In this document: piece by piece, positions 4,816 to 46,058 of the stretch
Layout: each line of letters starts with the position of its first letter
Numbering within the stretch: the first letter of the stretch is position 1
Origin: an uncultured Myxococcales bacterium
GTDB lineage: Bacteria; Myxococcota_A; UBA9042
Reading direction: 5' to 3'
Assembly (NCBI GenBank): GCA_903896545.1
Contig: CAITYF010000029.1
Span: 138,350 to 202,349 of the forward strand
Length of the DNA stretch: 64,000 nt
Notes under the pieces: model-generated
Told to the model about the DNA's origin: nothing
The model's database searches: none
Seen by the model: the letters and a program-made list of their open reading frames with translations, nothing else
Translations under genes and position numbers: made by a program

Positions 4816-4824
4816 GGACACACG

Positions 4825-5331: not shown

Positions 5332-5391
5332 CGTTGCTGCCGCACGAGCCTTGACCAGCCGTGACATTCGTGTATCCTGTCACGCGCCTTG

Positions 5392-5462
5392 CGGCGGCAT
5401 GGCCAAGTGGTAAGGCAGAGGACTGCAAATCCTCCATCCCCGGTTCGAATCCGGGTGCCGCC
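5392..5462 (+). tRNA. tRNA-Cys (anticodon GCA)
   Basis: Cloverleaf read directly from the sequence. Acceptor stem GGCGGCA/TGCCGCC, D-arm GCCAAGTGGTAAGGC, anticodon loop CUGCAAA (GCA), T-arm CCCGG-TTCGAATC-CCGGG, discriminator T. The CCA end is not encoded (CCG follows). Confidence 0.85.
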
Positions 5463-5791
5463 TCCGGAAACGCGCACACAGCTGGCTTACGGGCCCTGTG
5501 CGCGCGGTTCCTCAGAAGACGAGCGTTTGCTCGACCTTCTGCTGCGCGTGATGCAGTTTTTGGCATCGCGCCCTCCGATTCCGCGGACCCTGGCTGAGCT
5601 TCAGCCCCGGCCCAAAAAGTGGAATCGGCTGCCCCGACGGACTCTGGCTCCACGCCACAGACTGGGCTCGGTGCAGGTCTGCAGTCCCTCGCGAAAGCGG
5701 TGGAAAGCTGGCCAGGGGCGCGGACCATCCAACGACCTGCGCACGCAAAGTGTCTGAAACGATGGTGCTTTTTATCTTGATGATGCAAGTC

Positions 5792-6457
5792 ATGGCGACC
5801 CCAGAGAGCAAATCGACGGCCAACCCGAAGCGCGACGCGCTCGCGGCCCGTTTGACTGCACACTTCTCGCCGCTCATCACGGATTTGGGCCTGGATTTGC
5901 TGCAGCTGCGCCTGCTCGGCACCCGCGGCGCGATGCGCCTGGACGTGCGGGTCGATCGCCTTCCCGGCCAAGGCGCCGTCCGCCTGAACGATTGCCGCCG
6001 CGTGTCGCGCCTGCTGAGCACGCAGCTCGACGCGTTTGAAGCCGAAGGCAACGCCAATTTGACGATCGACAGCGCCTATGAACTCGAAGTATCGAGCCCC
6101 GGTATGGATCGCATCTTGCGGCACGAGGCCGACTTTGTGCGCTTCGTCGGTATGACCGTGAAGGTCATCGCGCGGCACAACGGCGCGCAGGAATCGACGC
6201 TCGGCGTGCTGGAATCCTGCGAGAACGGCGAATTGGCCATCAACCTGGGCAAGAAGAAGCCGCTCAAACTCGTGCAGTTGAGCGACATCGCGCAGGCCAA
6301 TCTGGCTCCGACGTTTGCCGAGTGGCTGGCGTTGGGCGAAAAGCTGAAAGCGGAAAGCGCGCAGCTGGGTGAAGCAGATTCGGTCGACGAGGCCGATCTG
6401 GATGGCGAAGCGCTTGAGGACGAGACAATCGAAGAGGACGACGCAACAGTCGACTGA
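5792..6457 (+). CDS. rimP: ribosome maturation factor RimP
   Basis: RimP signature EVSSPGMDRILR and overall RimP-like length and layout. It sits directly upstream of nusA as in the canonical operon. The start was chosen at ATG 5792 (MATPES...); the ORF track opens at 5750. Confidence 0.75.
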   Translation: MATPESKSTANPKRDALAARLTAHFSPLITDLGLDLLQLRLLGTRGAMRLDVRVDRLPGQGAVRLNDCRRVSRLLSTQLDAFEAEGNANLTIDSAYELEVSSPGMDRILRHEADFVRFVGMTVKVIARHNGAQESTLGVLESCENGELAINLGKKKPLKLVQLSDIAQANLAPTFAEWLALGEKLKAESAQLGEADSVDEADLDGEALEDETIEEDDATVD

Positions 6458-6485
6458 ATTGCGTACTTTTGAATTGCGTACTTTT
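6456..6485. repeat. perfect 15-bp tandem duplication (GAATTGCGTACTTTT x2), AT-rich, between rimP stop and nusA RBS
   Basis: Read directly from the sequence: tGAATTGCGTACTTTTGAATTGCGTACTTTTGAAGGAG. The first copy runs 6456-6470, the second 6471-6485, and the nusA RBS GAAGGAG follows. Confidence 0.8.
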
Positions 6486-6498
6486 GAAGGAGTGACCC

Positions 6499-8004
6499 AT
6501 GTTGGCAGCAAACCTGAATCCAATCATCGACCAAGTGTCGAAGGAAAAGAGCATCGACCGGTCCATTCTGGTTGAGGCGCTTGAACAGGGCATTCTGTCG
6601 GCAGCGAAGAAGATCTTCGGTCACGGCCGCGAGTTGGAAGCGAAGTACAACGTGGAGATCGGCCAGGTCGAGCTGATGTTGTATATGGTGGTCGTCGACG
6701 ACGGCGCGATCGAGAACACGGAACGCGAGCTCGGTTGGTCGACGGCGCAGATCATCGACCCGGACGTGCAGATCGGCGACGAACTGGGCTTCCAGATCTT
6801 CTACCTCGATCGCGACCGCCTGAGCGCTGAAGAGGAAGATCGCAAGTACGGCGACATTCTGAACATCAAGACCGCGCGCCAGCAGTTTGGCCGCATCGCC
6901 GCGACGACCGCCAAGCAGGTCATCACGCAGCGCGTGCGCGACGCCGAGCGCGACGTTGTCTTCAACGAGTACAAGGATCGCAAGGGCGAGCTCGTCACCG
7001 GCATCACGCGTCGCTTTGAGCGCGGTAACGTGATCGTCGACCTGGGTCGCGCGGAAGCCGTGCTGCCGATGCGCGAGCAGATGTTCCGCGAGTCCTACCG
7101 CGCGGGTGACCGCGTGCAGGCGTACGTCAAGGACATCAAGCGGGACGCGCGCGGTCCGCAAATCATTCTGTCGCGTACGGATCCGCGCTTGATTGAGAAG
7201 CTGTTCGAGCTGGAAGTGCCGGAAATCTACGAAGGCATCGTGAAGATCATGGCCGTTGCCCGCGAGCCGGGTGAGCGCGCCAAGATTGCCGTGGCGTCCA
7301 AGGACACGGATGTCGATCCGGTCGGCGCTTGCGTGGGCATGAAAGGCTCGCGCGTGCAGGCGGTGGTGCAGGAACTCAAGGGCGAAAAGATCGACATCGT
7401 GCCGTGGAGCCCGGACATCGCCAAGTTCGTCTGCAACGCGATCCAGCCGGCGGAAGTGAGCCGCGTGCTGATCGACGAAGACAACCAGACGATCGAACTG
7501 ATCGTCCCGGACGATCAGCTGTCGCTGGCGATCGGTCGTCGGGGTCAGAACGTGCGTCTCGCGTCGAAGCTCGTCGGTTGGAAGATCGACATGCAGTCCG
7601 AAGGCAAGATCGAGGAAATGAAGAAGATGCTCGGCGAGGCGCTGGCCGTCGTGCCGGGTCTGGACGAGTCGCTGATTTCCTACATGTTCAAGCTGGGTTA
7701 CCACAGCCCGGACAATCTGCTGAACGCGCATGGCGAGGATCTGGCCGGCATTCCGGGCATCTCGGACGAAATGGCGATGCAGATCCAGCAGATCGCGTTT
7801 GAAGTGAAGAAGCAGCGGGACGAAGATGCCCGCAACGCGCGTGAGCAGGCGGCCCAAGCGGCTGCTATCGCTGCTGCGGCCGTCGAAGCGACGGAAGCGG
7901 TGGACGCGGCGGCTGAGGAAGTCGCGGCTGAAATCGCCGGTGCGGAACTTGCTGGTGCGGACGTGAGCGGCGACGAGATCGCTGCTGCGGGCGCGTCGGC
8001 GTGA
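6499..8004 (+). CDS. nusA: transcription termination/antitermination factor NusA
   Basis: GAAGGAG RBS 7 nt upstream of ATG 6499. The 501-aa product has a NusA N-terminal domain, an S1 region ([21 protein letters not shown]) and KH regions ([15 protein letters not shown]). The C-terminal acidic tail is typical. Confidence 0.9.
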
Positions 8005-8636
8005 AAACGCGATCGGACGTGACGCGGACTTGCATGGCATGCAGGTCGCGGCGCCCGGTCGAGACATTGCTCGGCTTGCGCGTGACCGATGGTCAACTGC
8101 AGGTCGAAAAGCTGGGGGGGCAAGCGATTGCGCCAACAGCGAACGGGACAGACGGTGATGGCCGGCTGAACCGCAAAGGAAAGGGCAGCTACTGCTGCCC
8201 GGACAGGAAGTGTGCCGAAAGGGCCGTCAGCGCATTGTTGCGCCTCGGTCGTCGGCATGGAACGACGGTCGCCGAACATCCGGCGGTCCCACTGTTGCGC
8301 CACGCGGCCGAGGAGGCTGAGCGACGCACACAGCTTCGGGCCGCAGGACTCGCGCGCCGGGGCATCGAAGCCGGGACAGACGTCCTGGTAGGTGCTTGGA
8401 GTGCCGCTGCAACGCGCTGCCGGTCAGCCCTGGAAACAGGCCAGACCAGCCGAGCCAGCAGTGGGCAGCGCGATAAACGCGCACGGGAGCGGGACCTTGG
8501 CTGTTGCGACGACAACTCTGACTGTAAAGGACCTCGCGCGCGAGTTGAACATGACGGACGTCGAGCTGATGGCGAAAGCCAAAGCCGGCGGCACCGTCCT
8601 CTCGACGTTCTCGCGCCTGACTCCAGCGGATGCTGA
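8001..8636 (+). CDS. ylxR: YlxR/DUF448-like protein (nusA-infB operon), unusually long and overlapping infB
   Basis: GTG at 8001 overlaps the nusA stop (GTGA). N-terminal [20 protein letters not shown]...[22 protein letters not shown] matches the DUF448 pattern (RTCxxCR ... GRGaYvC). The frame stays open to 8636 (211 aa), whereas this family is about 90-100 aa. The tail overlaps the infB N-terminus and is probably not all real. Confidence 0.5.
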
Positions 8637-12739: not shown

Positions 12740-13690
12740 GTGAAAGCGGCCTTTTCCGCAGAAATCACGGCGCGCCACCCGCTGCTCTACAGCGATCCTC
12801 CGCGCGCAGATCGACCGCCGCACGTACGCGCTGGCTCGGCGCTCGTGCGCATCGATGACGAACTTCTCGTATTTCAGGATGATTGCCTGTGGCTGGCCGT
12901 CGTCGCCCTGCCCGCGCTGACGGTGACCTCGCTGGCCTTGCCGACCGACGGCGGCATCCGGGTCTTTGACCACGCACACAAAGCGCAGAAACCGGACCTG
13001 GAGGGCGCATTTGCCATCGCGCACGGTGCGTCGTGGCGTGTCGTCGCGCTGGGTTCCGGCTCCACGCCAACGCGCCGTCGCTGGCTCGTCATCGACGACT
13101 GGCACGGCGCCCGAACGATGCGCTGGATAGACGCCTCGCCATTTTACGATGTGCTGGTTTCGCGGACGGACTTCTCCGGCGCGGAGCTGAACCTCGAAGG
13201 CGCCGTCGTGCGAGGCGACCGGCTCGTCCTCTTGCAGCGCGGCAATGGGTCACCGCACGCAGGTTTGGAACCGATAGACGCAACGGCCGAGATGAAGGTC
13301 GCTGACGTCCTGGCCTGGATCGATGATCCAACGCTGCCGCCCCCGCCGCTGTTGAACGTTCGTGCGCGCCATCCGGGGATGCTCGACGGCGTGCAGTTGT
13401 CGCTCACGGACGCCGCGGCACTGGACGCGGAAACGCTGCTGGCGCTCGCAGCGGCAGAGGCGTCACCTGATACGTTTGCGGATGGCCAAGTCGTCGGCGC
13501 GGCCTTGGGCATTCTCAGTGCCGAGAACGAAGCGTGGGCAGTTCTGACCGAAAACGGTGCGCGGTTTGTCGGGAAGCCGGAAGGCATCGCACTGGACGCC
13601 GCCGTGCCCCGCACTGGCTGGGTGGTTCTGGACGCCGATGACCCGAACCGCCCCGCGGAACTCTGCCGGTTTGTCTGGCACACGCCTTAG
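12740..13690 (+). CDS. hypothetical protein (first gene of the truB/rpsO accessory insertion)
   Basis: 316-aa ORF with GTG start 3 nt after the truB stop. No domain recognised. It is convergent with the downstream small lipoprotein genes. Confidence 0.4.
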   Translation: MKAAFSAEITARHPLLYSDPPRADRPPHVRAGSALVRIDDELLVFQDDCLWLAVVALPALTVTSLALPTDGGIRVFDHAHKAQKPDLEGAFAIAHGASWRVVALGSGSTPTRRRWLVIDDWHGARTMRWIDASPFYDVLVSRTDFSGAELNLEGAVVRGDRLVLLQRGNGSPHAGLEPIDATAEMKVADVLAWIDDPTLPPPPLLNVRARHPGMLDGVQLSLTDAAALDAETLLALAAAEASPDTFADGQVVGAALGILSAENEAWAVLTENGARFVGKPEGIALDAAVPRTGWVVLDADDPNRPAELCRFVWHTP

Positions 13691-13696
13691 CTGCCC

Positions 13697-14131
13697 CTAC
13701 TTGTTGGCTGCGGGACGTTCCTTGCCGGTAAAACTCAGCGCGTCGATCTGCCACGTCTGGCCAACCTTCTGCAGCGGCACGTCGTACTTCGCGCCTGCGC
13801 CGGTGTCATTTTGCCGCCGCAGCTTCAGCCACGCCGTATCGCCCTCGACATCGACACTCTCCAGATTCTCGCTGACCAAATAGAAATACGGGTGCTGTCG
13901 CGACTGCTTGGCGTCGTCCCCGCGCGCGTGCGCCAAGAGCCCGGCCACCAACGGTCGCGACTGTTCGGTGAAGCCGGCCAGGAACGTCTGCTCATCGCCC
14001 AACATCGCCGCGGCGGTCGTGCGCAACCAGGCTTCCTTTGGCGATTCGACGCGGACGTACTTGTACCACGCGAGAATGCCGCCGCCGATAACAAGGAGGA
14101 GCGCAAACACGGCGAGCAGTTTCTTCATCAT
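13697..14131 (-). CDS. small membrane-anchored/secreted protein, paralog of the adjacent gene
   Basis: 144 aa with an N-terminal signal-anchor (MMKKLLAVFALLLVIGGGILAW). It shares blocks with the neighbour: FLAG/FLGL, VEGDTAWL/VEENGHRAIV, and the C-terminal GQTWQIDAL/EGQWRIDLL. Confidence 0.55.
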   Translation of the reverse strand: MMKKLLAVFALLLVIGGGILAWYKYVRVESPKEAWLRTTAAAMLGDEQTFLAGFTEQSRPLVAGLLAHARGDDAKQSRQHPYFYLVSENLESVDVEGDTAWLKLRRQNDTGAGAKYDVPLQKVGQTWQIDALSFTGKERPAANK

Positions 14132-14137
14132 TCTCTC

Positions 14138-14533
14138 TCAACGCTCGGGCGAAATGGCTTCGGCAAATTGCGGCATCTCCAGCAGGTCGATGCGCCACTG
14201 CCCCTCTACCAGCCGCATGGGCACACGGCTGGCCGGCTTCTTGGACCGGGTCGTCACGATAGCACGATGCCCGTTCTCTTCCACAGACACCACGTCGCCG
14301 TCGGGCAGCAAGCGCGCGGTCGGTCGGCCATCGCGCAACACTTTGTAAACGCGCCCCGATTGGTTCACGACTGTAGGCGCCGCCGTCAACAACGCGGCCG
14401 CGCGCGGTTCGCACAGCCCAAGAAACGCCGCGTCGTCCTTTGCCGCCAGCGCCGCGCGTGCGTGATCGAGCACGTCCGCAGGTTCATCGCGGCAGGCAGT
14501 CAACAGCAGCAAGGTGGCGAGGGTGCGTCGCAT
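14138..14533 (-). CDS. small lipoprotein, paralog of 13697-14131
   Basis: 131 aa with lipobox LLLLTAC and the same C-terminal W.IDL block as the downstream paralog. The two are 6 nt apart and likely co-transcribed. Confidence 0.55.
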   Translation of the reverse strand: MRRTLATLLLLTACRDEPADVLDHARAALAAKDDAAFLGLCEPRAAALLTAAPTVVNQSGRVYKVLRDGRPTARLLPDGDVVSVEENGHRAIVTTRSKKPASRVPMRLVEGQWRIDLLEMPQFAEAISPER

Positions 14534-14861: not shown

Positions 14862-16046
14862 TTAGAGCGGCAAGCTCTCCCGCACGACATAACGGGCAAA
14901 AACTTGCGGGTGCCAGAGGCGATCGAAGCGGTCTTGAATGTGCCGCTGCCGCTCCACGCGCACGCTGTGCGGCTCGTTGTACAATTCGTCCAAGACCCGC
15001 CAGACACGATTCCAGTCGACCGCATCGGCGAGTTCGTAGCCCATCGGTCCGAGGTCGAGAACCTCAGTGCCCATTTCGAAGGGCGCATACCAGCGCAACG
15101 CGAGCTCGTCCGCCGGTACCGATGCGCCGGTCAAGAAGCTGTCGATGAAGCGAAACGGAAGGCTGCGACGAAAGCCACTGATGTTGATGTTGTGCCACGC
15201 GCGACCCACGACCTGCGGATAGTTGGCGTCGTAGACCTGCGCGCCGCGCCGGGTCTTGTGGTCCGTGTTCAAGACGCGGGCGTCGACACGCGTGGCATAG
15301 CGCCGCCGCATCTCTTCGACCAGCAAGCCGCGTTTCTCATTCGGATGCGAAACGAGCCCGCTAAACCGCGACATGACAACGCCTTCGGGACCATGAAGAA
15401 TCGGTTTGTCCGTCCCAAAATAGGCAAAAAGCGCTGTATCCTTGACTCCCTGTCCCGCGAGACGCCACTGCTGCAAAATCCTGGTGTTGCGCCGCTGGTT
15501 GAGCGTGCGGGAGAGCGGGCGCCCCAGCATCGCCGGGCGGATGCGCGACTGGTATGTCAGCACGTCCGGGTGGTACGGAAAAAACGCGTCTTGGGCAATG
15601 GGAAAGCCCCGCGGGTCGAAGGTCGTCGGACACTGCGCCTTGAAGTAGACGTCCGTGTCCATGAGCAGGTCGGTCTGGAACAGATAAGGCGAGTCGGCCA
15701 AGTCCAGCACAAACCGCCGCTTCTTGCCGCCCGCTTCGACGGCGCCGGTCAGCATGGCCCCGGAGCCCCGCGCGAGCGAGTCCATCAACCGCGGGAAAAG
15801 CCGGCGCACCGCTGGCGCTGCCTTCGCGTGGAGTTGAAACGGCGGCGTGACGAACGTTGTCCGGAGTTGGAATTCGATCTCACCGGCGTCATGGAGCATT
15901 TGCAGGCCAAACACCAGCCACTCAAAGTAGTCCATGTAGGGAAAATGGATCGGATCAAGCGTGACTCTGACGGGAGCTGGCATGACGTCCTCGGTGCTCA
16001 CTGGGCCGCCGTCGAGATGCCGCGGTCGCCAGCAGTTGTCGCTCAA
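14862..16046 (-). CDS. hypothetical protein, possible transferase; divergent from the HAD-kinase-nucleotidyltransferase cassette
   Basis: 394-aa ORF that appears somewhat less GC-rich than its neighbours. I am not confident of any domain. The real start may be the internal Met (MPAPVRV..., about 15983). Confidence 0.45.
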   Translation of the reverse strand: MSDNCWRPRHLDGGPVSTEDVMPAPVRVTLDPIHFPYMDYFEWLVFGLQMLHDAGEIEFQLRTTFVTPPFQLHAKAAPAVRRLFPRLMDSLARGSGAMLTGAVEAGGKKRRFVLDLADSPYLFQTDLLMDTDVYFKAQCPTTFDPRGFPIAQDAFFPYHPDVLTYQSRIRPAMLGRPLSRTLNQRRNTRILQQWRLAGQGVKDTALFAYFGTDKPILHGPEGVVMSRFSGLVSHPNEKRGLLVEEMRRRYATRVDARVLNTDHKTRRGAQVYDANYPQVVGRAWHNINISGFRRSLPFRFIDSFLTGASVPADELALRWYAPFEMGTEVLDLGPMGYELADAVDWNRVWRVLDELYNEPHSVRVERQRHIQDRFDRLWHPQVFARYVVRESLPL

Positions 16047-16294
16047 GCGTAGCGCGGACGTGATGCGCTGGGCAAGCGCGCGGTGGCGCGAGCTGGCGGA
16101 ACTGGAAGGGCGCGACAGAACAGCGGCCCCATTGCCACCGATTCGACAGAAGCAGCTAAAACCAAACGCTTTTCATGGCGCGCGAACGCGCTTGACGTCG
16201 CCCATCTGGCCGGTCAGACTCGCCGCGCTCGCTCGGAGAACCGCGTTGCGGTCTGGAGCGGAAGACGCGGCGTCAGGTTTCCGGAGCGATTGCC

Positions 16295-16678
16295 ATGATC
16301 CACAAAGAGAATGTTCTGGTCATGGATTTGGACGGGACGCTCTGCCCCATCAAAAAGCCCGGCGAGCGATACGAAGACCTGCTGCCACGCGCGGACGTGT
16401 TGACCAAGCTGTTGGAATACCGGAAGAACGGCTTTTACATCATCATTCAAACCGCCAGGAACATGCGCACCTACGAGGGGAACGTCGGGAGAATTAACGC
16501 GAACACCGCGAAGTCCGTGTTCCAGTGGCTGGATCGGCACGAAATTCCGCACGATGAGGTCCACTTTGGCAAGCCGTGGTCTGGCAAGGGGGGCTTCTAC
16601 GTGGACGACAAGGCTGTTCGCCCTGACGAATTTCTCCAACTCACGCACGAAGAAATTCTTGCTTTGGTCTCCAAATGA
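16295..16678 (+). CDS. small capless HAD-superfamily phosphatase (sugar-phosphate phosphatase-like, GmhB/KdsC-type architecture)
   Basis: GGAG RBS 9 nt before ATG 16295. HAD motif I is LVMDLDGTLCP and motif II is IIIQTARN. Motifs III/IV are GKPWSGKGGFYVDDKA. At 127 aa it has no cap domain. Its stop overlaps the next gene's ATG (ATGA). Confidence 0.7.
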   Translation: MIHKENVLVMDLDGTLCPIKKPGERYEDLLPRADVLTKLLEYRKNGFYIIIQTARNMRTYEGNVGRINANTAKSVFQWLDRHEIPHDEVHFGKPWSGKGGFYVDDKAVRPDEFLQLTHEEILALVSK

Positions 16679-18351
16679 GTGGCCTGCTCATCGTGCCCTC
16701 CGCGCGGCTGATTCCCGCTGAGCTCCAGGGCGATTTCGGGCAGATTCCGTCGTGCATGATCCCTTTTGGGGGCGCCCCGGCGCTTCAACAGATCCTGACC
16801 GCAGTTGCAGGTTCGGACACGCGGGTGCTCGTCGCCGGGCATGAGAATATCGCGTGGATCGAAAGCTTTCTCGCGCACTCGCCGCAGAGCGCCGTGCGGG
16901 TGCTCGACGTCGGACAGACGCGTAGTTTGGGTGAAACGCTGTTGAGCGCGCTACGCAGCGAGGCGAATCTGGACTGCAGTCTGATCGTGAACTTTGGCGA
17001 CACCGTCGTTCCCGGTGAACTGCCGACAGGGGATTCCTTCGTCTTCGCGTGCCCTGACGAGCTATTCCGCTGGACGACGTTTCGTTTAGCGGCGACCGGT
17101 TACATTGAGCAGATCGTTGACCGGGGCTTAGAAAAGAACGACGAGGCCGATCGCCGTGTCTTCGTCGGTGTCTTCTCCTTTCAAGACGCCAAACGCTTCG
17201 CCAAATGCCTCGCTGATGCCCTTGCCACGCCGTCGCCGGAGCTTGATTCGTTCTACCGAGCCGTGCTCGCTTATTACAATTCCGCCGACTTTCCGCCCGT
17301 TGCCCGCCAGGTCGACCTGTGGATCGATCTGGGTCACCTGGACACGTACTACGCCTCGCGACGCTTACACGCGATGGGGGCGCGCTCCTTCAACACGGTC
17401 CTCGTCGACCCATTTCGCAGCATCCTGACGAAGAAAAGCCGCAACGAAGCGAAGTTCGCCGATGAGATCCAGTGGTACACACGCCTGCCGCCGGCTCTGG
17501 GCTACCTCGCGCCACGGGTCTTTTCGCATTCCGTTGTTCCGGGCGAAATGAGCATCGATCTGGAGTTCTACGGCTACCCGCCGCTTTCCGAAGTGTTCCT
17601 GTTTTCCCGGTTGGATCTAGCAGAATGGCGGGCGATTTTTGGACGCTTGGGGTTGGTTCTGGAAGACATGGCCCGTTACCAAACCGGGCCGGGCGATCGC
17701 GAACGCATCCGGCCCTCCCTCCGTTCCATGTATCTGGACAAGACGCTGGAACGACTTCAGGAAGTGATGGGCCTCCAAGTCGATCCGGCGATCCTGAACG
17801 GTCCGCTGGAGGTCAACGGCAAGCTGTGCGTACCGTTGCGCGACCTTCTGCAGGCGCTGCCCGATCTGCTCGAGGCTTCAGGACTGCAGGACGCTGCGCA
17901 CTTTTCAGTCATTCACGGCGATTTCTGTCTGAGCAACATCCTTTTTGATCGTCGCAGCCGCACCGTCCGGCTGGTCGATCCGCGGGGCCGTTTCGGGGAA
18001 TTCGACATCTACGGCGACCCACGCTACGACTTGGCCAAACTCTCGCATTGCTTCAACGGCGGTTACGACTTCCTGGTCCAAGGGCTCTTCTCGCTGGAAT
18101 CCACTTCGCCGGGCGTCTACCGCCTCACGGAATTCGCCAACGCCCTCCATCACCAAATCCGCGATGCCTTCAACGCGCAGTTTCTCCCGTCGCCGGTGCT
18201 GTACAATCAGGTACGTCTCATCGAGTCGCTGCTGTTTCTCAGCATGGTTCCACTCCACGCGGATCGGCCGCTTTCGCAGCAGGCGTTTCTTCTCCGCGGG
18301 CTCCAGACGGCGACTCCCTACTTCTCTCATTTGCATTCCTCCGCCAGGTGA
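16675..18351 (+). CDS. fusion protein: degenerate nucleotidyltransferase-like N-domain plus APH/choline-kinase-fold phosphotransferase C-domain
   Basis: The N-terminus shows the NTP-transferase fold pattern with a weakened G-loop (IPFGGAP, VGQTRSLGETLL about QxxLGTghA, LIVNFGDTVV about LxxGDxx). The C-terminus has Brenner-type kinase motifs VIHGDFCLSNILFD and LVDPRGRFGEFDIYGDPRYDLAKL. Length is 558 aa, and the gene is translationally coupled to the HAD gene. Confidence 0.65.
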   Translation: MSGLLIVPSARLIPAELQGDFGQIPSCMIPFGGAPALQQILTAVAGSDTRVLVAGHENIAWIESFLAHSPQSAVRVLDVGQTRSLGETLLSALRSEANLDCSLIVNFGDTVVPGELPTGDSFVFACPDELFRWTTFRLAATGYIEQIVDRGLEKNDEADRRVFVGVFSFQDAKRFAKCLADALATPSPELDSFYRAVLAYYNSADFPPVARQVDLWIDLGHLDTYYASRRLHAMGARSFNTVLVDPFRSILTKKSRNEAKFADEIQWYTRLPPALGYLAPRVFSHSVVPGEMSIDLEFYGYPPLSEVFLFSRLDLAEWRAIFGRLGLVLEDMARYQTGPGDRERIRPSLRSMYLDKTLERLQEVMGLQVDPAILNGPLEVNGKLCVPLRDLLQALPDLLEASGLQDAAHFSVIHGDFCLSNILFDRRSRTVRLVDPRGRFGEFDIYGDPRYDLAKLSHCFNGGYDFLVQGLFSLESTSPGVYRLTEFANALHHQIRDAFNAQFLPSPVLYNQVRLIESLLFLSMVPLHADRPLSQQAFLLRGLQTATPYFSHLHSSAR

Positions 18352-18356
18352 ACGCC

Positions 18357-19085
18357 ATGCACATTCTAATCACGATGGCCGGCCTCGGCAGCCGCTTTCG
18401 CGCGAAGGGCTATTCGGTGCCCAAGTACCAGATCGAAGTCCGCGGTCGCACCCTATTTTCTTGGTCGATGGAGAGCCTCCGGAATTTCTTTCCCGGGAAT
18501 CTCACCACGTTCGTGGTGCGCAAGGAGGACGCTCCTGATGCATTCATTCGGCAGGAACTCCTCGCGTTTGGCGTCACCGAACCCGTCATCATCAGCCTCG
18601 ACGCGTTGACCGACGGACAGGCGACAACTGTGCTTCTGTCCCTACCGACGCTTCGCGGGCGCGACGCCCAAGCGCCGCTGCTCATCTACAACATCGATAC
18701 GTTTGTTGAGCCCCACGCGCTGCAACCCTCCGATATTCGTGGCGATGGATGGATTCCCTGTTTTCCCGGCAAAGGGGATGCGTGGAGCTTCTTCCGTACC
18801 GACGCGAGCGGGCGGGTGTTGGAAGCCAAGGAAAAGGTGCGGATTTCGGACCATGCATCGATCGGACTCTACTATTTTGCGTCTCTGGACATCTTCGAAG
18901 AGACCTACCGCGCGTATTTTCGGGACGGACTGCCTGACGGACTGCGCGAACGCTACGTCGCGCCCATGTACCAGGACCTCATCGCCCGCGGGCGCGATCT
19001 CTGGGTTCAGGAGATTCCCGAAGGCGCTGTCCACCCGCTGGGAACACCGGAGGAAGTCGATCTGTTTGCAGCCGACGGTCGCTGA
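18357..19085 (+). CDS. sugar-phosphate/head-group nucleotidyltransferase (LicC/MurU/GlmU-N-like)
   Basis: ATG 18357, 6 nt after the upstream stop. N-terminal MHILITMAGLGSRFRAKGYSVPKYQIEVRGR is the canonical NTP-transferase G-loop and PK motif. Length is 243 aa. Confidence 0.75.
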   Translation: MHILITMAGLGSRFRAKGYSVPKYQIEVRGRTLFSWSMESLRNFFPGNLTTFVVRKEDAPDAFIRQELLAFGVTEPVIISLDALTDGQATTVLLSLPTLRGRDAQAPLLIYNIDTFVEPHALQPSDIRGDGWIPCFPGKGDAWSFFRTDASGRVLEAKEKVRISDHASIGLYYFASLDIFEETYRAYFRDGLPDGLRERYVAPMYQDLIARGRDLWVQEIPEGAVHPLGTPEEVDLFAADGR

Positions 19086-22664: not shown

Positions 22665-25600
22665 TCATCGAACGCATCGAACGTACAGTGAGAACGAGCC
22701 ATCATAACCGATCGTCTTCCCGTAGGTGAAGTCCGTGCGCCAGTACGACCCACCCACCGCCTTGTAGGTCGTTGCACTCCAGTAGGCTGCGAGCTGGGTG
22801 CCGAAAAACACCGTCGTGTTAATCGCGGGCCCGGTTGACGTTGTGTTGCGGTCGACAATCGAGTCGAGCTCAATCGCGCGCGGAAGCCGCCAGCCGCCAC
22901 CGGCGGTCGAGAGTCCACTGCACCGCGTGATCGCACTCGCCTGCACATAGGGAGAAACCGAAGGAGTCCGCTCCCAAACAAGCTTCGTGGCGTTGTCTGT
23001 GACGGTGCTGGCATCGGAGGTGAACCGCGTCGACGGGCTTGCCGACAACACGGAGCTTCGTACACAACGCACTCGCGCCGTGCTCGCCACGCTGAGGGTG
23101 TTGAGGACACCAGCGGCCCCCGATACCGTCCAGGCGCTTTGCGACGCGGTCTCGACCGACTGCACCGCAGTCCAATAGACGTCCGTGACCGCAACCGACT
23201 GGAAGACGCTGGATACGACCGGTCCGTACGCGGTCAGATCTCGCAGCGACGCCAGTTCAGCGAGCGACGGGAGGCGCCAGTCCGACTTGGAGGCCGTCGT
23301 CGCCGTTTTGCAGTAGGCGTTGGCCTCAGTCCACGTCTTCAGCGTGACGCCGCTGTCTTGTTTCTGCCAAGTCAGGTACGTCAACGCGTCGCCCACCGTT
23401 CCGTCACCGTTGTCGGCCAATTTCGTCGCGGGCACGTTCGGATTGTCCGTCCGGCCGCCCCAAGCCGGAAAATCCGGCGCGCACACGCAACCGGCTCCCG
23501 TCTCGACGTACGCGTAGCCATTCGTGCAACTCGCCGGTCCCGTACACGTCAGCGTAAACGTGCTCACCACGCCCGCGCCACACACCCCCGCCGTACACGT
23601 CCCCGTCGCGCACGCCGCCCCATCGCTCAGGTTCACGTGCTTGCACCCACTCGCGGGGTCGCAGCTGTCCGTCGTGCAGCCATTGCCGTCGTCGCAATTC
23701 ACGCCCGTGCCCACGCAAGCGCCGCCGGTACACGTGTCGCCGGACGTACACGCGCTGCTGTCATCACACGCGGCCGCAAGATTCGCGTGCGTGCAGCCCG
23801 TCGTGCTGTCGCAGGAATCGCTCGTGCAGACCTGATTGTCGCTGCAGTTGACCGCGTTGCCGGTACAGACGCCGCTGACGCACGTGTCACCCGTCGTGCA
23901 CTTGCTGCCGTCGTCACACGAAACCACCACGTTGGTCTGCACGCAACCCAGCACTTTGTCGCAGCTGTCGCTCGTGCACGGGTTACCGTCATTGCAAAAC
24001 GCGGTCGCTCCTTTGCACGTGCCCTGCCCGCACATGTCACCGTTCGTGCACGCGTTGCCGTCGTCGCACGGAGCCGAGGTGTACGTGAAAATACAGCCCG
24101 CGACCTTGTCGCAGGTGTCTGCCGTGCACAGGTTGAAGTCGTTGCAAATGGCCGCCGTGCCGCCGCAAGCGCCGTTCGCGCAGGCGTCGTTGAACGTGCA
24201 AGCGTCGTTGTCATTGCACGCCGCCGTGTTGTTGCTGTGACTGCACGCGCCGCCGACGAGGCACGTGTCCGTCGTACACGGGTTGCCATCGTTGCAGCCG
24301 CTGCTGGTGACGGTGTACACGCAGCCCTTGACCACGTCGCAGCTGTCCGTCGTACAGACGTTGTTGTCGTCGCAGACCTTGTTGGTGCCCACGCAGCCGC
24401 CGCCCGTGCAAGTTTCCCCGGCCGTGCACGCGTTGTTGTCGTTGCACGCCAAGGCGTTGTCCACATGCGTGCAGCCTGCCTTGCTGCAGCTGTCCTCAGT
24501 GCAGAAGTTGCCGTCGTCGCAGATCATCGCCGTACCGGCGCAGAGACCAAGCTTGCAAAAGTCGCCCGTCGTACACGCGTCGCCGTCGTTGCAGTTCAGG
24601 TTGTTGAAAGAGTGCCCGCAGCCATCAATCGCGTCGCAGCTGTCGGTCGTGCACGGGTTGCCGTCATTGCACGCCGCCGAGTTCGCCGCAAAAACACAGC
24701 CTGATCCGCCGTCGCAGCCGTCGCTTGTGCACACGTTGCCGTCGTCACACGTCAGGGCTGCGCCCGCGCACGCGCCGTTCTGACAGGTGTCTCCGGTCGT
24801 ACACGCGTCACCGTCATCGCAACTCGCGCTGGTCTTGGCGTGAACGCAGCCGATGGTTATTTGGCAGCTATCCGCGGTGCACGCGTTGCCATCGTCGCAG
24901 TTGGTGGTCTGTCCGCTGCAACTGCCGCTGGCGCACTTGTCCGCGCTCGTGCAGGCGTTGCCGTCGTTGCAGCTGATTGTGTTGTTGCTGTGCACGCAGC
25001 CCGCGCCGGCGATGCACGCGTCGTTGGTGCACGGGTTGGCGTCGTCGCAGTTGGTCAGGCTGCCGATGCAGCCCCCGTCCGTGCACGTGTCGCCAGTCGT
25101 GCAGGCGTTGCCGTCGCTGCAGGCTGCGGTGCTGTTGGCGTACGCGCAGCCAGTCGCCGGGTTGCAGGTGTCGTCGGTGCAGGTGTTGCCGTCGTCGCAA
25201 GGCAGCGCTTGTCCCTGACAGCCGCCGCCCAAGCACACGTCGCCCACCGTGCAGGAGTTGCCGTCGTTGCACAGCGCTGTTGTGTTGGCATGGACGCAGC
25301 CTAGACTCGGCTGGCAGCTGTCCATCGTGCAGATGTTCGCGTCATCGCACGTGATACCACTGCCGACGCAGCCGCCGGCGACGCACGTGTCCGCGCCGGT
25401 GCACGCGTTGCCGTCAAAACAAGGTGCCGTCGCGTTGCTGTGGCTGCAGCCCTGGGTGCCAGAACACGTGTCGTTGGTGCACGCGTTGCCGTCGTCACAG
25501 GAAACTGGCGCGCCGTTGCAGGTTCCCAAGGCGCAACTGTCGCCCGTCGTGCACGCGTTGCCGTCGACGCACGCCAGCGTGTTGGCCGCGTGTCCGCACC

Positions 25601-26678
25601 CCGCGATGCCCAGGCACGTGTCGGTCGTGCACACGTTGTCATCGTCACATGACGTGTTGTCGATCTGCCCGTTGCAGTCGTCGTCCTTCGCGTTGCAGAC
25701 CTCGACGGCACCTGGGTGCACGTACGGACTCTTGTCATCGCAGTCCGTCGTTTCTGTGACGTAACCGGGCGGCGCGACGCAGCCCTGAGCGCTCACCTTC
25801 GCATTGCCAAAGCCGTCGCCGTCGGCGTCCTGGAACCAGGTCGCGGCAACGCCTTCATCGGTTTGGCCGTCGCAGTTGTCGTCCAAGCCGTTGCAGGTTT
25901 CCGGTTGTGCCCCGGTGCCGGTACACGCGCTCAAGCCGTCCAGCGTGCACTTGCGCGTACCTGGACACGCGCCGGCACTATTCTTGACCAGACACGTTGT
26001 GCTCGCGCCGTCAAACGTCGCCAGTTCCGAACAACTGCACTCGCCGGTCACCAACACGCACTGCTTGCCCGCGCCTTTCTCGCCCTGAACGGCTTTGCAG
26101 TCGTAGCCCGACGGGCACTCGTTTGTGCTGTTGCAGCCGCCGCCACAAAAGCGCCCGGCGGCGCCGTAGTCGATGCAGAGCGACCCACCGTTGACCTTGC
26201 CGCATTCTGCGTCCGTCACGCACGGGCGACAGAGCGCGACCGACGTCGGCAAGCAGATGAAGGACGTGTCCGTGCTGCCGGTTACCTGGGCGCACTTGAA
26301 GCCGCCCGGACAGCAGTCGACGCACGTCTGCGTGCAGATCTTGCCATTCGCCGAATCGACGCAATAGCCGCTCTGACAATCCGCCGCGGCAGCGCACGTT
26401 GCGCCGGATTCGCCTTTGGCTGGCTGAGTGGGAAAATCACAAGACGTCGTCACCGAATCCGTGGACACCGCGTCAGAAGCCGCCGCATCGCCCTGGCCCG
26501 CTGTGTCCTTGTCTCCCCCGGCAGTGTCGCCTTTCGCGTTCGCCGCGTCCGTCCCACCGATTTGCGAGTCGAACGTCACGTTGACGTCCACGCCTGTTCC
26601 AGCGCCGTCTTCCGCTTTGGGGCTACTACACGCCGCAAGCCCCCAAACAACAGCGACGAGGACAAACAGATGGCGCAT
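22665..26678 (-). CDS. giant secreted lipoprotein: about 19 myxobacterial Cys-rich repeats (CxDGNxCTxDxC) plus two C-terminal DUF1566 (Lcl-C-like) domains
   Basis: The true start is the internal Met at 26678 (complement CAT at 26676-78), giving MRHLFVLVAVVWGLAACSS with a lipobox. The ORF track's longer 5' extension has no signal peptide. Repeats such as ALPCDDGNTCTDDTCNPATGCAYANSTAACSDGNACTTGDTCTDGGC recur. The C-terminus has DALTYLTWQKQ...WTEANAYC...DWRLPSLAELASL and a second TKLVWERTP...GGGWRLPRAIELDSIV copy. Length is 1337 aa. Confidence 0.8.
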   Translation of the reverse strand: MRHLFVLVAVVWGLAACSSPKAEDGAGTGVDVNVTFDSQIGGTDAANAKGDTAGGDKDTAGQGDAAASDAVSTDSVTTSCDFPTQPAKGESGATCAAAADCQSGYCVDSANGKICTQTCVDCCPGGFKCAQVTGSTDTSFICLPTSVALCRPCVTDAECGKVNGGSLCIDYGAAGRFCGGGCNSTNECPSGYDCKAVQGEKGAGKQCVLVTGECSCSELATFDGASTTCLVKNSAGACPGTRKCTLDGLSACTGTGAQPETCNGLDDNCDGQTDEGVAATWFQDADGDGFGNAKVSAQGCVAPPGYVTETTDCDDKSPYVHPGAVEVCNAKDDDCNGQIDNTSCDDDNVCTTDTCLGIAGCGHAANTLACVDGNACTTGDSCALGTCNGAPVSCDDGNACTNDTCSGTQGCSHSNATAPCFDGNACTGADTCVAGGCVGSGITCDDANICTMDSCQPSLGCVHANTTALCNDGNSCTVGDVCLGGGCQGQALPCDDGNTCTDDTCNPATGCAYANSTAACSDGNACTTGDTCTDGGCIGSLTNCDDANPCTNDACIAGAGCVHSNNTISCNDGNACTSADKCASGSCSGQTTNCDDGNACTADSCQITIGCVHAKTSASCDDGDACTTGDTCQNGACAGAALTCDDGNVCTSDGCDGGSGCVFAANSAACNDGNPCTTDSCDAIDGCGHSFNNLNCNDGDACTTGDFCKLGLCAGTAMICDDGNFCTEDSCSKAGCTHVDNALACNDNNACTAGETCTGGGCVGTNKVCDDNNVCTTDSCDVVKGCVYTVTSSGCNDGNPCTTDTCLVGGACSHSNNTAACNDNDACTFNDACANGACGGTAAICNDFNLCTADTCDKVAGCIFTYTSAPCDDGNACTNGDMCGQGTCKGATAFCNDGNPCTSDSCDKVLGCVQTNVVVSCDDGSKCTTGDTCVSGVCTGNAVNCSDNQVCTSDSCDSTTGCTHANLAAACDDSSACTSGDTCTGGACVGTGVNCDDGNGCTTDSCDPASGCKHVNLSDGAACATGTCTAGVCGAGVVSTFTLTCTGPASCTNGYAYVETGAGCVCAPDFPAWGGRTDNPNVPATKLADNGDGTVGDALTYLTWQKQDSGVTLKTWTEANAYCKTATTASKSDWRLPSLAELASLRDLTAYGPVVSSVFQSVAVTDVYWTAVQSVETASQSAWTVSGAAGVLNTLSVASTARVRCVRSSVLSASPSTRFTSDASTVTDNATKLVWERTPSVSPYVQASAITRCSGLSTAGGGWRLPRAIELDSIVDRNTTSTGPAINTTVFFGTQLAAYWSATTYKAVGGSYWRTDFTYGKTIGYDGSFSLYVRCVR
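23650..25800. repeat. nucleotide-level tandem repeat tract (about 110-120 bp units) encoding the Cys-rich repeats
   Basis: Recurrent GC-rich units (for example GTGCACGCGTTGCCGTCGTCGCA, the complement of TGCGACGACGGCAACGCGTGCAC). Related tracts occur at 57.6-59.2 kb and 61.3-62.8 kb. Confidence 0.7.
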
Positions 26679-26845
26679 CCAGCATTCCTCCGGAGCAGAG
26701 CCAAGCGACTCGTGCGATGTCGCTACGATGGCAAAAATGCGTTTGGGTTTCAACGGCGGAATCACGCAATCACCGAGCGCGTTCCAGTCGTCTGGCAGCG
26801 GATCCAGCCGCGACGGGCGAACGGCCGCGCGTGGCGGAATCGGAC

Positions 26846-27448
26846 CTACGGAAGCGTGTCCGACTTGCTGTCGCTGCCCGTTCCGTCGGCCTTGGGCTGG
26901 CAGGAAAACGCCGCGTTCATGGCGCACTGGAAGTAGTCCTGGAAGATTTTTGCGCCAATTGGGTCCGCCTTCAGCGGCGCGCCGCAAGCGTCCTGACAAG
27001 CCTGGTCGCTGTTGCACTTGCCGAGGCACACGAACGCGTTGGTGCACGTCGCGTTGCCCTTGCACGCGGCGGTTTCCTTGGCACAGACGGCGTCCACGCA
27101 CGCCGAGGAATTGTCGCCGGTGTCCTTGCTGCCGCTGACCGTGTCGTTGACGACGACAACTGGATTCGCAGCGCACGACGCCTCCGTCTTGGAGGTGACG
27201 ACGCAATGCGTGCCGGCTCCGCACGCCGTTCCCGCGGTCCACGTGGCCGGAGAAACGTCGGTCGGGCAGTTCACAATCGAACTCGTCGTGGTGCCAGGCT
27301 CCGTGTAGCAGCCAACCGGCGTGTTCGCCGCGACGCACGGGTTGCCGGGCGCGCCGCCGGGAACGGGATTACCGGAATTCGTCGTGCTGCCGCACGCGGT
27401 CGCGAGGATCGCGCACGCCACAAGGAAAAACTGCTTCAACGCGGTCAT
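26846..27448 (-). CDS. small Cys-rich secreted lipoprotein
   Basis: Internal Met at 27448 gives MTALKQFFLVACAILATACGS (lipobox). The mature protein of about 180 aa has roughly 22 Cys. Confidence 0.6.
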   Translation of the reverse strand: MTALKQFFLVACAILATACGSTTNSGNPVPGGAPGNPCVAANTPVGCYTEPGTTTSSIVNCPTDVSPATWTAGTACGAGTHCVVTSKTEASCAANPVVVVNDTVSGSKDTGDNSSACVDAVCAKETAACKGNATCTNAFVCLGKCNSDQACQDACGAPLKADPIGAKIFQDYFQCAMNAAFSCQPKADGTGSDSKSDTLP

Positions 27449-44089: not shown

Positions 44090-44153
44090 GAAAACTCCTT
44101 GCCCCAAGCGAACGCGGGCTGCCGAACAGTTTGCTACCAGCCGTTCCGTTTGG

Positions 44154-45194: not shown

Positions 45195-45269
45195 GTGCGG
45201 AAACGTACCACGCCGGCAAAAAGCCGCCAGAGTTTGCACATACCCGCGCTTGACCTACGATCGGGGCCG

Positions 45270-46055: not shown

Positions 46056-46058
46056 CCC

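Follow-up and report, generated by a model that had tools for sequence, protein, structure and literature searches.

What does a tightly packed trio of genes, encoding a small HAD phosphatase, a nucleotidyltransferase (NTase)-like::APH kinase fusion and a stand-alone NTase, produce, and from which sugar? The question is raised by a cassette in the window, by which we mean the whole 64,000-nucleotide stretch of DNA from an uncultured Myxococcales bacterium that was analysed here (Table 1). Our answer is that the cassette probably converts a sugar phosphate of central metabolism into a nucleotide-activated sugar for transfer to an acceptor in the cell envelope, all of these steps being predicted. 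The domain assignments of the initial annotation (HAD, NTase-like::APH kinase and NTase) and its kinase/phosphatase/NTase logic of sugar activation, including the analogy with heptose, were borne out.

The open reading frames and their junctions confirmed that the three genes are tightly coupled. The stop codon of the HAD gene is overlapped by the ATG of the fusion as ATGA, and the ATG of the NTase gene was found 5 nt past the TGA of the fusion, not 6 nt as first noted; the third protein is a canonical NTase, as had been said, but of 242 and not 243 residues. All the motifs quoted at that stage were recovered, namely HGDFCLSNILFD (fusion residues 414-425), IPFGGAP (fusion residues 29-35) and ITMAGLGSRFR (stand-alone NTase). 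The divergently oriented glycosyltransferase gene had been overlooked. A scan of the 311-bp divergent region for the sigma-70 consensus gave no match, so the promoters placed there are presumed, and promoter and terminator scans within the cassette returned nothing convincing. The cassette is flanked by truB/DUF6929 and rpsO-pnp and contains one glycosyltransferase only. Unlike most of its homologs it appears to lie outside a polysaccharide cluster; comparable stand-alone four-gene cassettes were seen at two other loci (L096 and L098). When Pfam and NCBIfam were searched, the HAD, the fusion and the NTase gave weak or sub-threshold matches only, and the glycosyltransferase gave none.

Table 1. 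Positions of the cassette features in the window
Feature	Coordinates	Strand	Remark
GT-B fold glycosyltransferase, 373 aa	14862..15983	-	without Pfam or NCBIfam family
Divergent intergenic region, 311 bp, between glycosyltransferase and HAD-fusion-NTase operon	15984..16294	.	presumed promoter region
Capless mini-HAD phosphatase, 127 aa, 1xpj / AfhF / EcbF-BcbF type	16295..16678	+	
Fusion, whole ORF, NTase-like::APH kinase, 558 aa	16675..18351	+	
Fusion N-terminal NTase-fold domain, residues ~1-232	16675..17370	+	
Fusion C-terminal APH-fold kinase domain, residues ~233-558	17371..18351	+	
Stand-alone sugar-1-phosphate nucleotidyltransferase, 242 aa, 4evw type	18357..19085	+	

The mini-HAD matched the EcbF-BcbF model TIGR01689 with 147.8 bits (E 1.4e-43, residues 4-119 of 126), a score below the curated NCBIfam cut-off of 162 bits; it is a close relative that falls just under the threshold. 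Its PDB matches were 1xpj (E 9e-40) and 9iqw (AfhF; E 0.004), and it was 28% identical to AfhF of phage HY126 (E 1e-8) and 44-60% identical, in pairwise tblastn, to the HADs of E. coli capsule and O-antigen loci. The stand-alone NTase matched PDB entry 4evw (E 1e-37), and both its GLGSRF...PK signature and the MAGLGSRFRAKGYSVPK motif are present and intact. It was 49% identical to its counterpart in Gimibacter soli, 34-48% to those beside the E. coli K4, K52-type and O78 fusions (pairwise tblastn; 33-48% over the E. coli trios including K11-type) and 23% to ORF235 of phage RSL1. Catalytic residues are intact in this NTase, in the kinase domain of the fusion and in the HAD, where the DxDGT...T...K...DD motifs are legible.

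The only biochemically characterised homologs of the fusion and the HAD are AfhE and AfhF of E. coli phage HY126, which make UDP-D-arabinose, with further homologs in RB69 and DLP3. According to PMC13326640, which relays the work of He et al. and Mahler et al. (2025), AfhE is both an arabinose 5-phosphate (Ara5P) 1-kinase and a UDP-Ara pyrophosphorylase, and AfhF is a Mg-dependent phosphatase that converts Ara-1,5-P2 to Ara-1-P. The window fusion aligned end to end with HY126 AfhE (24% identity, E 1e-16) and with gp047 of Enterococcus phage 9183 (E 8e-42), and it shared 24-27% identity with the fusions of the Enterococcus phage and of Ralstonia phage RSL1. In both systems an NTase-fold N-domain is joined to an APH-fold kinase in a protein of ~560 aa, the capless HAD has ~128 aa (PDB 9iqw for AfhF) and the genes are closely packed neighbours; the two systems would also share a route from sugar phosphate through anomeric bisphosphate, sugar-1-phosphate and NDP-sugar to a GT-B transferase. 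Because the fusion and the HAD are homologous to AfhE and AfhF, the architecture is not wholly undescribed, and the cassette is most likely a split-up relative of the phage pathway.

The two systems also differ. The fused N-domain of phage AfhE keeps the GxGxR...PK signature and itself transfers the nucleotide, whereas the window fusion has lost this signature; the phage pathway has no separate NTase and has an arabinose-5-phosphate isomerase gene alongside, whereas the window has a separate NTase and no such isomerase; and the phage acceptor is 5-hydroxycytosine in DNA, in contrast to the context of cellular glycan synthesis here. The bacterial version is thus set apart from AfhE/AfhF by the degenerate fused N-domain and the separate NTase. 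The fusion and mini-HAD, once put down as departing from the textbook, had therefore already been characterised in HY126, but their division over three proteins with a degenerate domain does depart from it, and the homology to AfhE/AfhF falls short of an identical characterised pathway. A literature search found no biochemical study of the bacterial trio. Among phages, RSL1 resembles the window in having a degenerate-loop fusion (ORF236) followed directly by a stand-alone NTase (ORF235), and ORF236 clusters with the E. coli group in a neighbour-joining (NJ) tree; it differs in that its fusion is shorter (477 aa) and that no adjacent HAD was detected. As DNA-glucosyltransferase-like genes surround it, the RSL1 system probably serves DNA modification.

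By analogy with AfhF, the mini-HAD most likely acts in the middle of the pathway on a bisphosphate, which would make a sugar phosphate the input; the free sugar assumed in the initial annotation is accordingly disfavoured. From the homologies, folds, motif loss, conserved synteny and isomerase absence observed directly, and from the published AfhE/AfhF chemistry and kfoE phenotype, we infer a step order, a sugar, a nucleotide, an acceptor and an N-domain role. The APH-fold kinase domain would phosphorylate a furanose-locked sugar phosphate at its anomeric hydroxyl, most likely turning fructose 6-phosphate into fructose 2,6-bisphosphate or, alternatively, Ara5P into the 1,5-bisphosphate. In line with fructose, D-fructofuranose 6-phosphate is D-arabino-configured and equals arabinofuranose 5-phosphate plus a CH2OH group at the anomeric carbon. 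The mini-HAD would then strip the distal phosphate, and because it would leave the anomeric phosphate in place the ring would stay furanose. The 4evw-type NTase would join the resulting sugar-1(2)-phosphate to an NTP to give the NDP-sugar, and the divergent GT-B enzyme would transfer the sugar. As the product of the cassette we tentatively favour NDP-fructofuranose, whose chances we put a little short of even; that the whole bacterial and archaeal family makes NDP-D-fructofuranose via fructose 2,6-bisphosphate and fructose 2-phosphate is a more tentative extension still. No relevant bacterial paper was returned by a literature search for UDP-, CDP- and GDP-fructose and fructose-2-phosphate, and we found no prior description of NDP-D-fructofuranose or of a prokaryotic use of fructose 2,6-bisphosphate.

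At least 574 species genomes of Bacteria and Archaea carry the HAD-fusion-NTase trio, mostly within polysaccharide loci. At ~62-69 of 80 unrelated loci from many phyla and from Archaea its genes lie side by side with tight spacing, so their adjacency is far beyond chance; the NTase comes after the fusion or the HAD at 69 of the 80. When the genomic context of the homologs was surveyed, as had been proposed with the initial annotation, the conserved neighbours were glycosyltransferases (GT2/GT4) and genes of polysaccharide export (Wzx/Wzy or ABC transporters). A KdsD/KpsF-type isomerase was found within 10 kb of the trio at none of the 80 loci, and tblastn of the 64-kb window with the HY126 isomerase (API) and E. 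coli KpsF matched only the SIS domain of GlmS; this absence fits a substrate taken directly from central metabolism. An amino-sugar or cell-wall-sugar substrate had been suggested on account of a nagZ gene and an APH gene beside glmS. These genes are present (GH3, NagZ-like, at 1444-2592; APH at 44154-45239; glmS at 42260-44107), but their distances from the cassette are 14 and 25 kb and they do not belong to its conserved neighbourhood, and a link with it was rejected. The best family matches of the distant APH protein were homoserine-kinase models, far below their curated cut-offs.

The only genetic evidence on the sugar comes from E. coli kfoE, and it points to fructose. At the E. coli loci L089-L095, a HAD, a degenerate-loop fusion and a 4evw-type NTase are adjacent, and the NJ tree groups the window fusion with the E. 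coli proteins in one large clade. The trio is carried by the K4 locus, a K52-type locus, the O78 locus and a plasmid-borne group-3 locus compatible with K11, the K52 (L094) and K11 (L090) assignments being made from serotype, lineage and gene content in place of a typed reference. The K52-type locus was read from an O15:H18 ST69 genome instead of the K52 reference strain UMN026 (NC_011751), and when E. coli genomes were searched at DNA level for distant matches to the locus of an Enterobacteriaceae MAG (L083), none turned up. The K11 antigen presumably contains fructose, and the core of Vibrio cholerae contains it as well. Synteny with the published map of K4 identifies the fusion of this locus as kfoE. 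Deletion of kfoE is described in PMC7925653 and PMC8858990 as yielding non-fructosylated chondroitin, a phenotype that the literature has read as a fructosyltransferase defect and to which polar effects on the downstream NTase gene may contribute. The fold of KfoE does not support that label; a literature search on kfoE returned no biochemical study. K52 is called fructose-containing in the title of a cited paper, and a 2026 survey (PMC13171598) placed it first for invasiveness; no K-antigen structures were found in PMC10249353.

The K4 trio (an unnamed phosphatase, kfoE and a 'glycosyltransferase family 2' gene) shows the same split into three proteins as the window, and the E. coli and window fusions have the same type of degenerate N-loop, '...QQEL...FGxIPP/S'. 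The E. coli trios, however, lie inside capsule or O-antigen loci beside polymerases and other transferases (KfoD, WavE-family), whereas the window cassette appears to stand alone. In pairwise tblastn the window fusion was 24-29% identical to the E. coli fusions, about as much as to the phage fusions, so identity of substrate across the clade is not assured. Furthermore, fructosylation does not always depend on this pathway, since in C. jejuni HS:1 fructofuranose is added by a single 849-aa protein without the trio.

The strongest rival keeps the same enzymology but gives NDP-D-arabinofuranose as the product, as in the phages, with Ara5P supplied by the housekeeping KdsD of a Gram-negative host; we consider this rather unlikely. 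In favour of arabinose, the characterised homologs AfhE and AfhF act on Ara5P, the capsule of P. multocida type B, the source of the BcbF name, is reported to contain arabinose, the lipobox-type lipoprotein gene and NagZ in the window fit a KdsD-bearing Gram-negative, and Butyrivibrio has homologs of the RB69 type with a SIS isomerase domain fused to them (PMC6024577). Against this, the isomerase-free loci include those of normally KdsD-less Firmicutes, Actinobacteria and Archaea, HY126 AfhE forms a long outgroup branch in the NJ tree, and the E. coli trio is found in the locus of K4, a fructosylated chondroitin that loses its fructose with kfoE, and in the probable K52 locus. Fructose thus remains our preferred sugar.

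A second alternative concerns the fused N-domain, which could still be catalytic, either as a second NTase with an odd site or with a new sugar-phosphate activity, adding a step or giving two products. In canonical NTases the Arg of GxGxR and the Lys of PK bind the phosphates of the NTP. The degenerate signature recognised in the initial annotation is real, but it was misplaced at IPFGGAP, the counterpart of the ordinary 'IPxxGKP' strand downstream of the lost loop; the degenerate signature lies at residues 7-16, where PSARLIPAEL replaces GxGxR-L/F/M, and at residue 26, where PS stands for PK. In the alignment PSARLIPAEL...IPS of the window fusion is thus opposed to GAGLATRL...IPK of AfhE, and the Group-1 N-terminal motif xxSxxxxxxEL..FGxIPx takes the place of the NTP loop. 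The GxGxR...PK signature is missing from the fused N-domain of all bacterial homologs, its Arg and Lys being replaced in every one. It is also clear that a complete NTase is always encoded alongside: every degenerate-loop fusion with intact flanks (~70 bacterial and archaeal loci and phage RSL1) has a stand-alone NTase nearby, whereas the canonical-loop phage fusions (n = 2) have none.

Some features do speak for a working site. Conservation of the N-domain comes close to that of the kinase domain (mean pairwise identity 0.38 vs 0.44), and its invariant polar residues include D109 (GDT), D218 (WxDxGH), E16, R132, T134 and H221, of which D109 and D218 correspond to the two metal-binding Asp of canonical NTases. 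As to the catalytic Lys and Asp whose retention was to be checked, the PK Lys is therefore lost and both Asp are kept, and 'presumably inactive' was too strong a term for a domain so conserved. Nevertheless, with Arg and Lys replaced throughout and a complete NTase at hand, we regard a catalytic N-domain as improbable, and we infer instead a module that binds the sugar phosphate or the NDP-sugar in a scaffold or regulatory role.

A salvage order, in which the HAD first frees the sugar and the kinase and NTase then act as in MupP/AmgK/MurU, appears quite unlikely. The same three enzyme classes run in this order in MurNAc recycling, and Table 1 of PMC13326640 predicts it for DLP3 and RB69; the HY126 experiment in that source, however, has the kinase acting on Ara5P first and the phosphatase then on the bisphosphate, and a free ketose or pentose would drift to the pyranose form, so that the furanose lock would be lost. 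The window shares with AmgK/MurU/MupP and LicA/LicC an APH-fold anomeric or head-group kinase and a small NTase (and, for MurNAc, a HAD), but the likeness is at fold level only. Those kinases lack a fused NTase-like domain, the substrates are free MurNAc or choline, and the MurNAc phosphatase comes first; the MurU model NF045761 (cut-off 250 bits) scored 17.1 bits, confined to the first 43 residues, and the window proteins do not belong to the choline kinase or LicC families at sequence level. The ADP/GDP-heptose pathways (GmhA, HldE or HddA, GmhB, HldE-C or HddC) share the proposed chemical logic: an anomeric kinase acts on a distally phosphorylated sugar, a capless class III HAD strips the distal phosphate and an NTase follows. 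Their kinases have a PfkB or GHMP and not an APH fold, however, their HAD, GmhB (IIIA), is of another family (the window HAD scored 20 bits with the HAD-IIIA model, cut-off 44.6), and they need an isomerase and a pyranose heptose as substrate. Very improbable is a LicA/LicC-type pathway for a head group other than a sugar (choline, ethanolamine or the like), or an antibiotic-modifying kinase: the matches are weak and at fold level only, whereas AfhE/AfhF are specific, full-length homologs, glycosyltransferases are the conserved partners and LicA/LicC chemistry leaves no place for a mid-pathway HAD.

With the order kinase, HAD, NTase retained, the last step would fall to the divergent GT-B glycosyltransferase, the fourth gene, which belongs with the trio and presumably uses its NDP-sugar. 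It represents a rare family, different from the transferases at the E. coli trios, and BLAST detected no similarity to KfoD, KfoB, KfoG, the WavE family or other trio-adjacent glycosyltransferases; conservation between systems therefore does not extend to the transferase.

If the general reading of the cassette is correct, a function would be given to a very widespread trio whose members now bear the labels 'aminoglycoside phosphotransferase', 'capsule biosynthesis phosphatase' and 'glycosyltransferase family 2'. It would represent a split bifunctional enzyme, in which the catalytic NTase has moved to a gene of its own and the fused copy has been retained for a non-canonical role. The source of fructofuranose or another furanose in the capsules and LPS of pathogens (E. 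coli K4, probably K52, O78 APEC, V. cholerae) would become testable. If, in addition, the whole family makes NDP-D-fructofuranose, the conserved pseudo-NTase domain would be a product- or substrate-sensing module. KfoE would be a misnamed 'fructosyltransferase' and in truth the committed kinase, which would correct the assignment of a gene that is routinely deleted in industrial chondroitin strains. The pathway would supply the long-missing donor of fructose in K4, K11 and K52 of E. coli and in the V. cholerae core. Overlooked acid-labile fructose decorations would also be predicted, for example in E. coli O78 and on the envelope acceptor of the window organism.

The three open reading frames of the trio are present, the coordinates and ATGA overlap in the initial annotation being confirmed with small corrections, and every motif it quoted was found in the window sequences. 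When the fusion was scanned with Pfam, APH alone was matched (residues 254-458, E 5.7e-8), and no match was obtained in its N-half. The HAD scored 147.8 bits against NCBIfam TIGR01689 (EcbF-BcbF capsule biosynthesis phosphatase), just below the cut-off of 162, and its closest solved structure was PDB 1xpj (E 9e-40); that of the third-gene NTase was PDB 4evw (E 1e-37). Catalytic motifs were intact in the kinase domain (K253, E264, HGD416, N421, D435), the HAD (DxDGT, T, K, DD) and the stand-alone NTase.

Features of the window discussed in the text
Feature	Position	Strand	Remark
DUF6929/DUF6910 protein	12740-13690	+	starts 3 nt after truB
Two small envelope ORFs	13697-14131; 14138-14533	-; -	between DUF6929/DUF6910 gene and GT
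GT-B glycosyltransferase	14862-15983	-	divergent from trio; no family assignment
HAD	16295-16678	+	127 aa; ORF call
NTase-like::APH-kinase fusion	16675-18351	+	558 aa; ATG overlaps HAD stop as ATGA
Stand-alone NTase (gene 3)	18357-19085	+	242 aa; begins 5 nt past fusion stop
Cys-rich repeat protein	22665-27338	-	1557 aa
glmS	42260-44107	-	
APH-family kinase	44154-45239	-	361 aa; directly upstream of glmS
ORF adjoining APH-family kinase	45306-46412	-	368 aa; no family match

When phage genomes were searched by tblastn, the window fusion matched 242 records, including HY126 (AfhE, E 1e-16, residues 23-493) and, over the full length, gp047 of Enterococcus phage 9183 (E 8e-42). The work on HY126 is summarized in PMC13326640 (2026, NAR): AfhE is bifunctional, its C-terminal kinase phosphorylating C1 of D-arabinofuranose 5-phosphate and its N-terminal domain being a UDP-arabinose pyrophosphorylase, while AfhF, a mini-HAD dependent on Mg, produces Ara-1-P from the 1,5-bisphosphate. 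The window HAD showed 28% identity to AfhF, which equals PDB 9iqw residue for residue across the aligned part, and the HY126 gene order was arabinose-5-P isomerase, small ORF, afhE, afhF. From this homology and gene order, the fusion plus mini-HAD, previously regarded as not textbook, is therefore an architecture already characterised in phage HY126. The likeness lies in the homologous NTase::kinase fusion and mini-HAD; however, phage AfhE has a canonical NTP-binding signature and no separate NTase, whereas the window combines a degenerate signature with a separate NTase.

The signature of the fused N-domain is indeed lost, as had been proposed, but the alignments revealed that IPFGGAP is not the degenerate part. 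The window sequence PSARLIPAEL...IPS stands where active relatives carry GxGxR(L/F/M)...PK, with both the Arg and the Lys missing. The canonical signature was kept in AfhE (GAGLATRL...IPK) and the Enterococcus phage protein (AAGRGTRM...YPK), both without a separate NTase gene. On the other hand, the degenerate-loop fusions of the window, Ralstonia phage RSL1 (ORF236) and E. coli (KfoE) were each followed by a stand-alone 4evw-type NTase with an intact signature, and GxGxR...PK was absent from all of the approximately 75 readable fusion N-termini of an 80-locus survey. Mean pairwise identity among 58 homologs was 0.38 for the N-domain versus 0.44 for the kinase, and 28 of 232 N-domain columns were conserved at ≥90%, among them E16, R132-W-T134, H221, D109 (GDT) and D218 (WxDxGH), the last two corresponding to metal-binding aspartates of canonical NTases. 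Because its identity is near that of the kinase and these columns are conserved, the degenerate N-domain is not decaying. Catalysis may have shifted to the stand-alone NTase, and the fused domain would bind sugar phosphate or NDP-sugar as a scaffold or feedback sensor. The RSL1 pair ORF236/ORF235 (L003:4001-6159) shows the bacterial-style split, a degenerate-loop fusion and then a stand-alone NTase, in a jumbo phage; the genes around the pair are DNA-glucosyltransferase-like, and a HAD was not detected beside it.

A scan of one-genome-per-species contigs yielded at least 574 confirmed relatives among the 600 stretches listed, and 80 loci from such contigs were surveyed. The stand-alone NTase was present in 69 of the 80, and the HAD adjoined the fusion in 62, most exceptions being contig ends, and two gene orders were seen (HAD-fusion-NTase and fusion-HAD-NTase). 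Elsewhere the trio usually lies among GT2/GT4 glycosyltransferases, Wzx/Wzy or ABC-transporter export genes, sugar dehydratases and WavE-family proteins. In a neighbour-joining tree of 90 fusions, two large bacterial clades were resolved; the window fusion shared its clade with E. coli capsule and O78 proteins and phage RSL1, while HY126 AfhE and the Enterococcus phage fusion formed long outgroup branches. Among loci L009-L088, the loop remnant reads 'IPSAxLIPxELQxxFGxIPS' in group 1 fusions and 'ILAAGK...' or 'IPAAGRVPEG...AMIPVxGKPVI' in group 2, and fusions of both clades are accompanied by HAD and stand-alone NTase. Different substrates may be used by the two clades. In bacteria the three-protein version occurs extremely widely and is poorly annotated, and no biochemical assay of it was found in the literature; the pathway had been called undescribed, which is right in part only, because phage AfhE/AfhF is a close precedent.

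When complete E. coli genomes were searched for distant DNA matches, the trio was recovered in several loci. In L091, a K4-type kps locus, the order was kfoA(galE)-kfoB-kfoC-IS3-kfoD-HAD-fusion (split by IS1)-241-aa 'GT2'-kfoF-kfoG, and the published K4 map has kfoD, a 390-bp 'putative phosphatase', the 1557-bp kfoE and a 732-bp 'putative glycosyltransferase' (PMC13171598 supplement). Because these orders match, kfoE is, judging from gene order, the fusion. By tblastn, the window fusion matched each of the two pieces of kfoE (E 3e-22 and 2e-17); the genes flanking kfoE were matched by the HAD and the NTase of the window. The IS1-split kfoE lies at L091:10114-12459 of E. coli WP7-S18-ESBL-09; the NTase beside it is mis-annotated as 'glycosyltransferase family 2' and the mini-HAD is unnamed. 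The trio was also present in a group-2 locus of an O15:H18 ST69 strain (L094), together with a galactosyltransferase-related gene, a 3747-bp TagF-like gene and an acyltransferase; isolates of this type are listed as K52 (PMC13171598 supplement). A plasmid-borne group-3-like locus with a Stealth protein (L090) carried it as well, which fits K11 (G3-B), a type that occurs on plasmids (PMC13171598). Further copies were found in another group-2 locus (L089), two other O-antigen-region loci (L092, L093) and the O78 O-antigen cluster of E. coli O78:H4 APEC E19057 (L095:5596-11526), where the trio and a WavE-family gene lie between wzy and wzx. The published O78 repeat unit contains GlcNAc and Man only, with no sugar explaining the trio and the WavE-family gene; an acid-labile side branch may have escaped notice.

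A link between the trio and fructose has support in the literature: in PMC7925653 and PMC8858990, kfoE deletion in K4 is described as giving non-fructosylated chondroitin, and the kfoE product is named a fructosyltransferase. The KfoE fold is kinase plus NTase-like, with no glycosyltransferase fold. K52 is called 'fructose-containing' in the title of a cited paper. The E. coli K11 capsule also contains fructose. Since D-fructofuranose 6-phosphate has the D-arabino configuration, being Araf-5-P with a hydroxymethyl at the anomeric carbon, it is chemically plausible, by analogy, that a relative of the Ara5P 1-kinase would act on Fru6P. No paper describing an NDP-fructofuranose in bacteria was found. 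Homologs of the phage arabinose-5-P isomerase or E. coli KpsF occurred neither anywhere in the 64-kb window nor within 10 kb of the trio in the 80 loci, the sole exception being the generic region-1 kpsF of E. coli kps loci. Loci without the isomerase include those of Lachnospiraceae, Ruminococcus, Enterococcus, Actinomycetota, Halobacterium and Methanosarcinales, which to our knowledge normally lack the Kdo pathway. The absence of an isomerase near the trio, even in such lineages, argues that the trio usually starts from a sugar phosphate supplied directly by central metabolism.

The window cassette appears to lie outside any polysaccharide cluster, unlike the E. coli trio, which is inside capsule or O-antigen loci; on one side of the cassette are truB/DUF6929 and two small envelope ORFs, and on its other side rpsO-pnp. 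One small ORF has an N-terminal membrane anchor and the other a lipobox (LLLLTAC), and the arrangement from truB to the GT is unchanged in other contigs with exactly this locus. The GT-B protein had 41 homologs only in a collection of 5.8 billion proteins. In three genomes unrelated to one another (L083, with 55% identity to the window GT, L096 and L098) a homolog immediately follows the trio downstream, and others adjoined different NDP-sugar cassettes. On the contig of P0127 (ENA ERZ1426532, genes at 3206-8137), a homolog with 63% identity to the window GT follows a different cassette, made up of a 360-aa protein, a DHQ-synthase-like enzyme, an SDR and an NTase. These neighbours suggest that the NDP-activated donor for this rare GT family may be a cyclitol or another unusual compound. 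Elsewhere in the window, the APH-family kinase beside glmS had homoserine-kinase models as best NCBIfam matches, far under cut-off; neither it nor the adjoining ORF is related to the four-gene cassette. The 1557-aa protein consists largely of dozens of 'CxDGNxCTxDxC'-type repeats, and its C-terminal region weakly resembles a fimbrial tip adhesin model (E 7e-9); the protein probably serves as an adhesin, either secreted or at the surface.

The initial interpretation is supported in part: the kinase/phosphatase/NTase enzyme logic was correctly recognized at the outset. By the order known from homologs in the literature, the kinase domain would act first on a sugar phosphate, the HAD would remove the distal phosphate from the bisphosphate, and the NTase would activate the resulting monophosphate; the bisphosphate route would hold the sugar locked as a furanose. 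For fructose, the predicted route is Fru6P to Fru-2,6-P2 to Fru-2-P to NDP-Fruf. Compared with the E. coli proteins, the HAD was 44-60% identical and the NTase 33-48%, whereas the fusion reached just 24-29%, because of which a substrate shared by window and E. coli trios is plausible rather than established. We tentatively propose NDP-fructofuranose as the product in the window organism, with a little less than even confidence. Against fructose, C. jejuni HS:1 attaches fructofuranose by a single 849-aa protein without the trio, and the P. multocida type B capsule, source of the BcbF name, reportedly contains arabinose. Another sugar takes the remaining probability, and NDP-arabinofuranose, with the phage pathway on one side and the absent isomerase on the other, is unlikely; the amino-sugar substrate suggested initially is unsupported. 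Whichever NDP-sugar is made, the GT-B enzyme would transfer it to an envelope acceptor. The trio probably explains how an activated form of fructofuranose, or of another furanose, is supplied for capsules and LPS.
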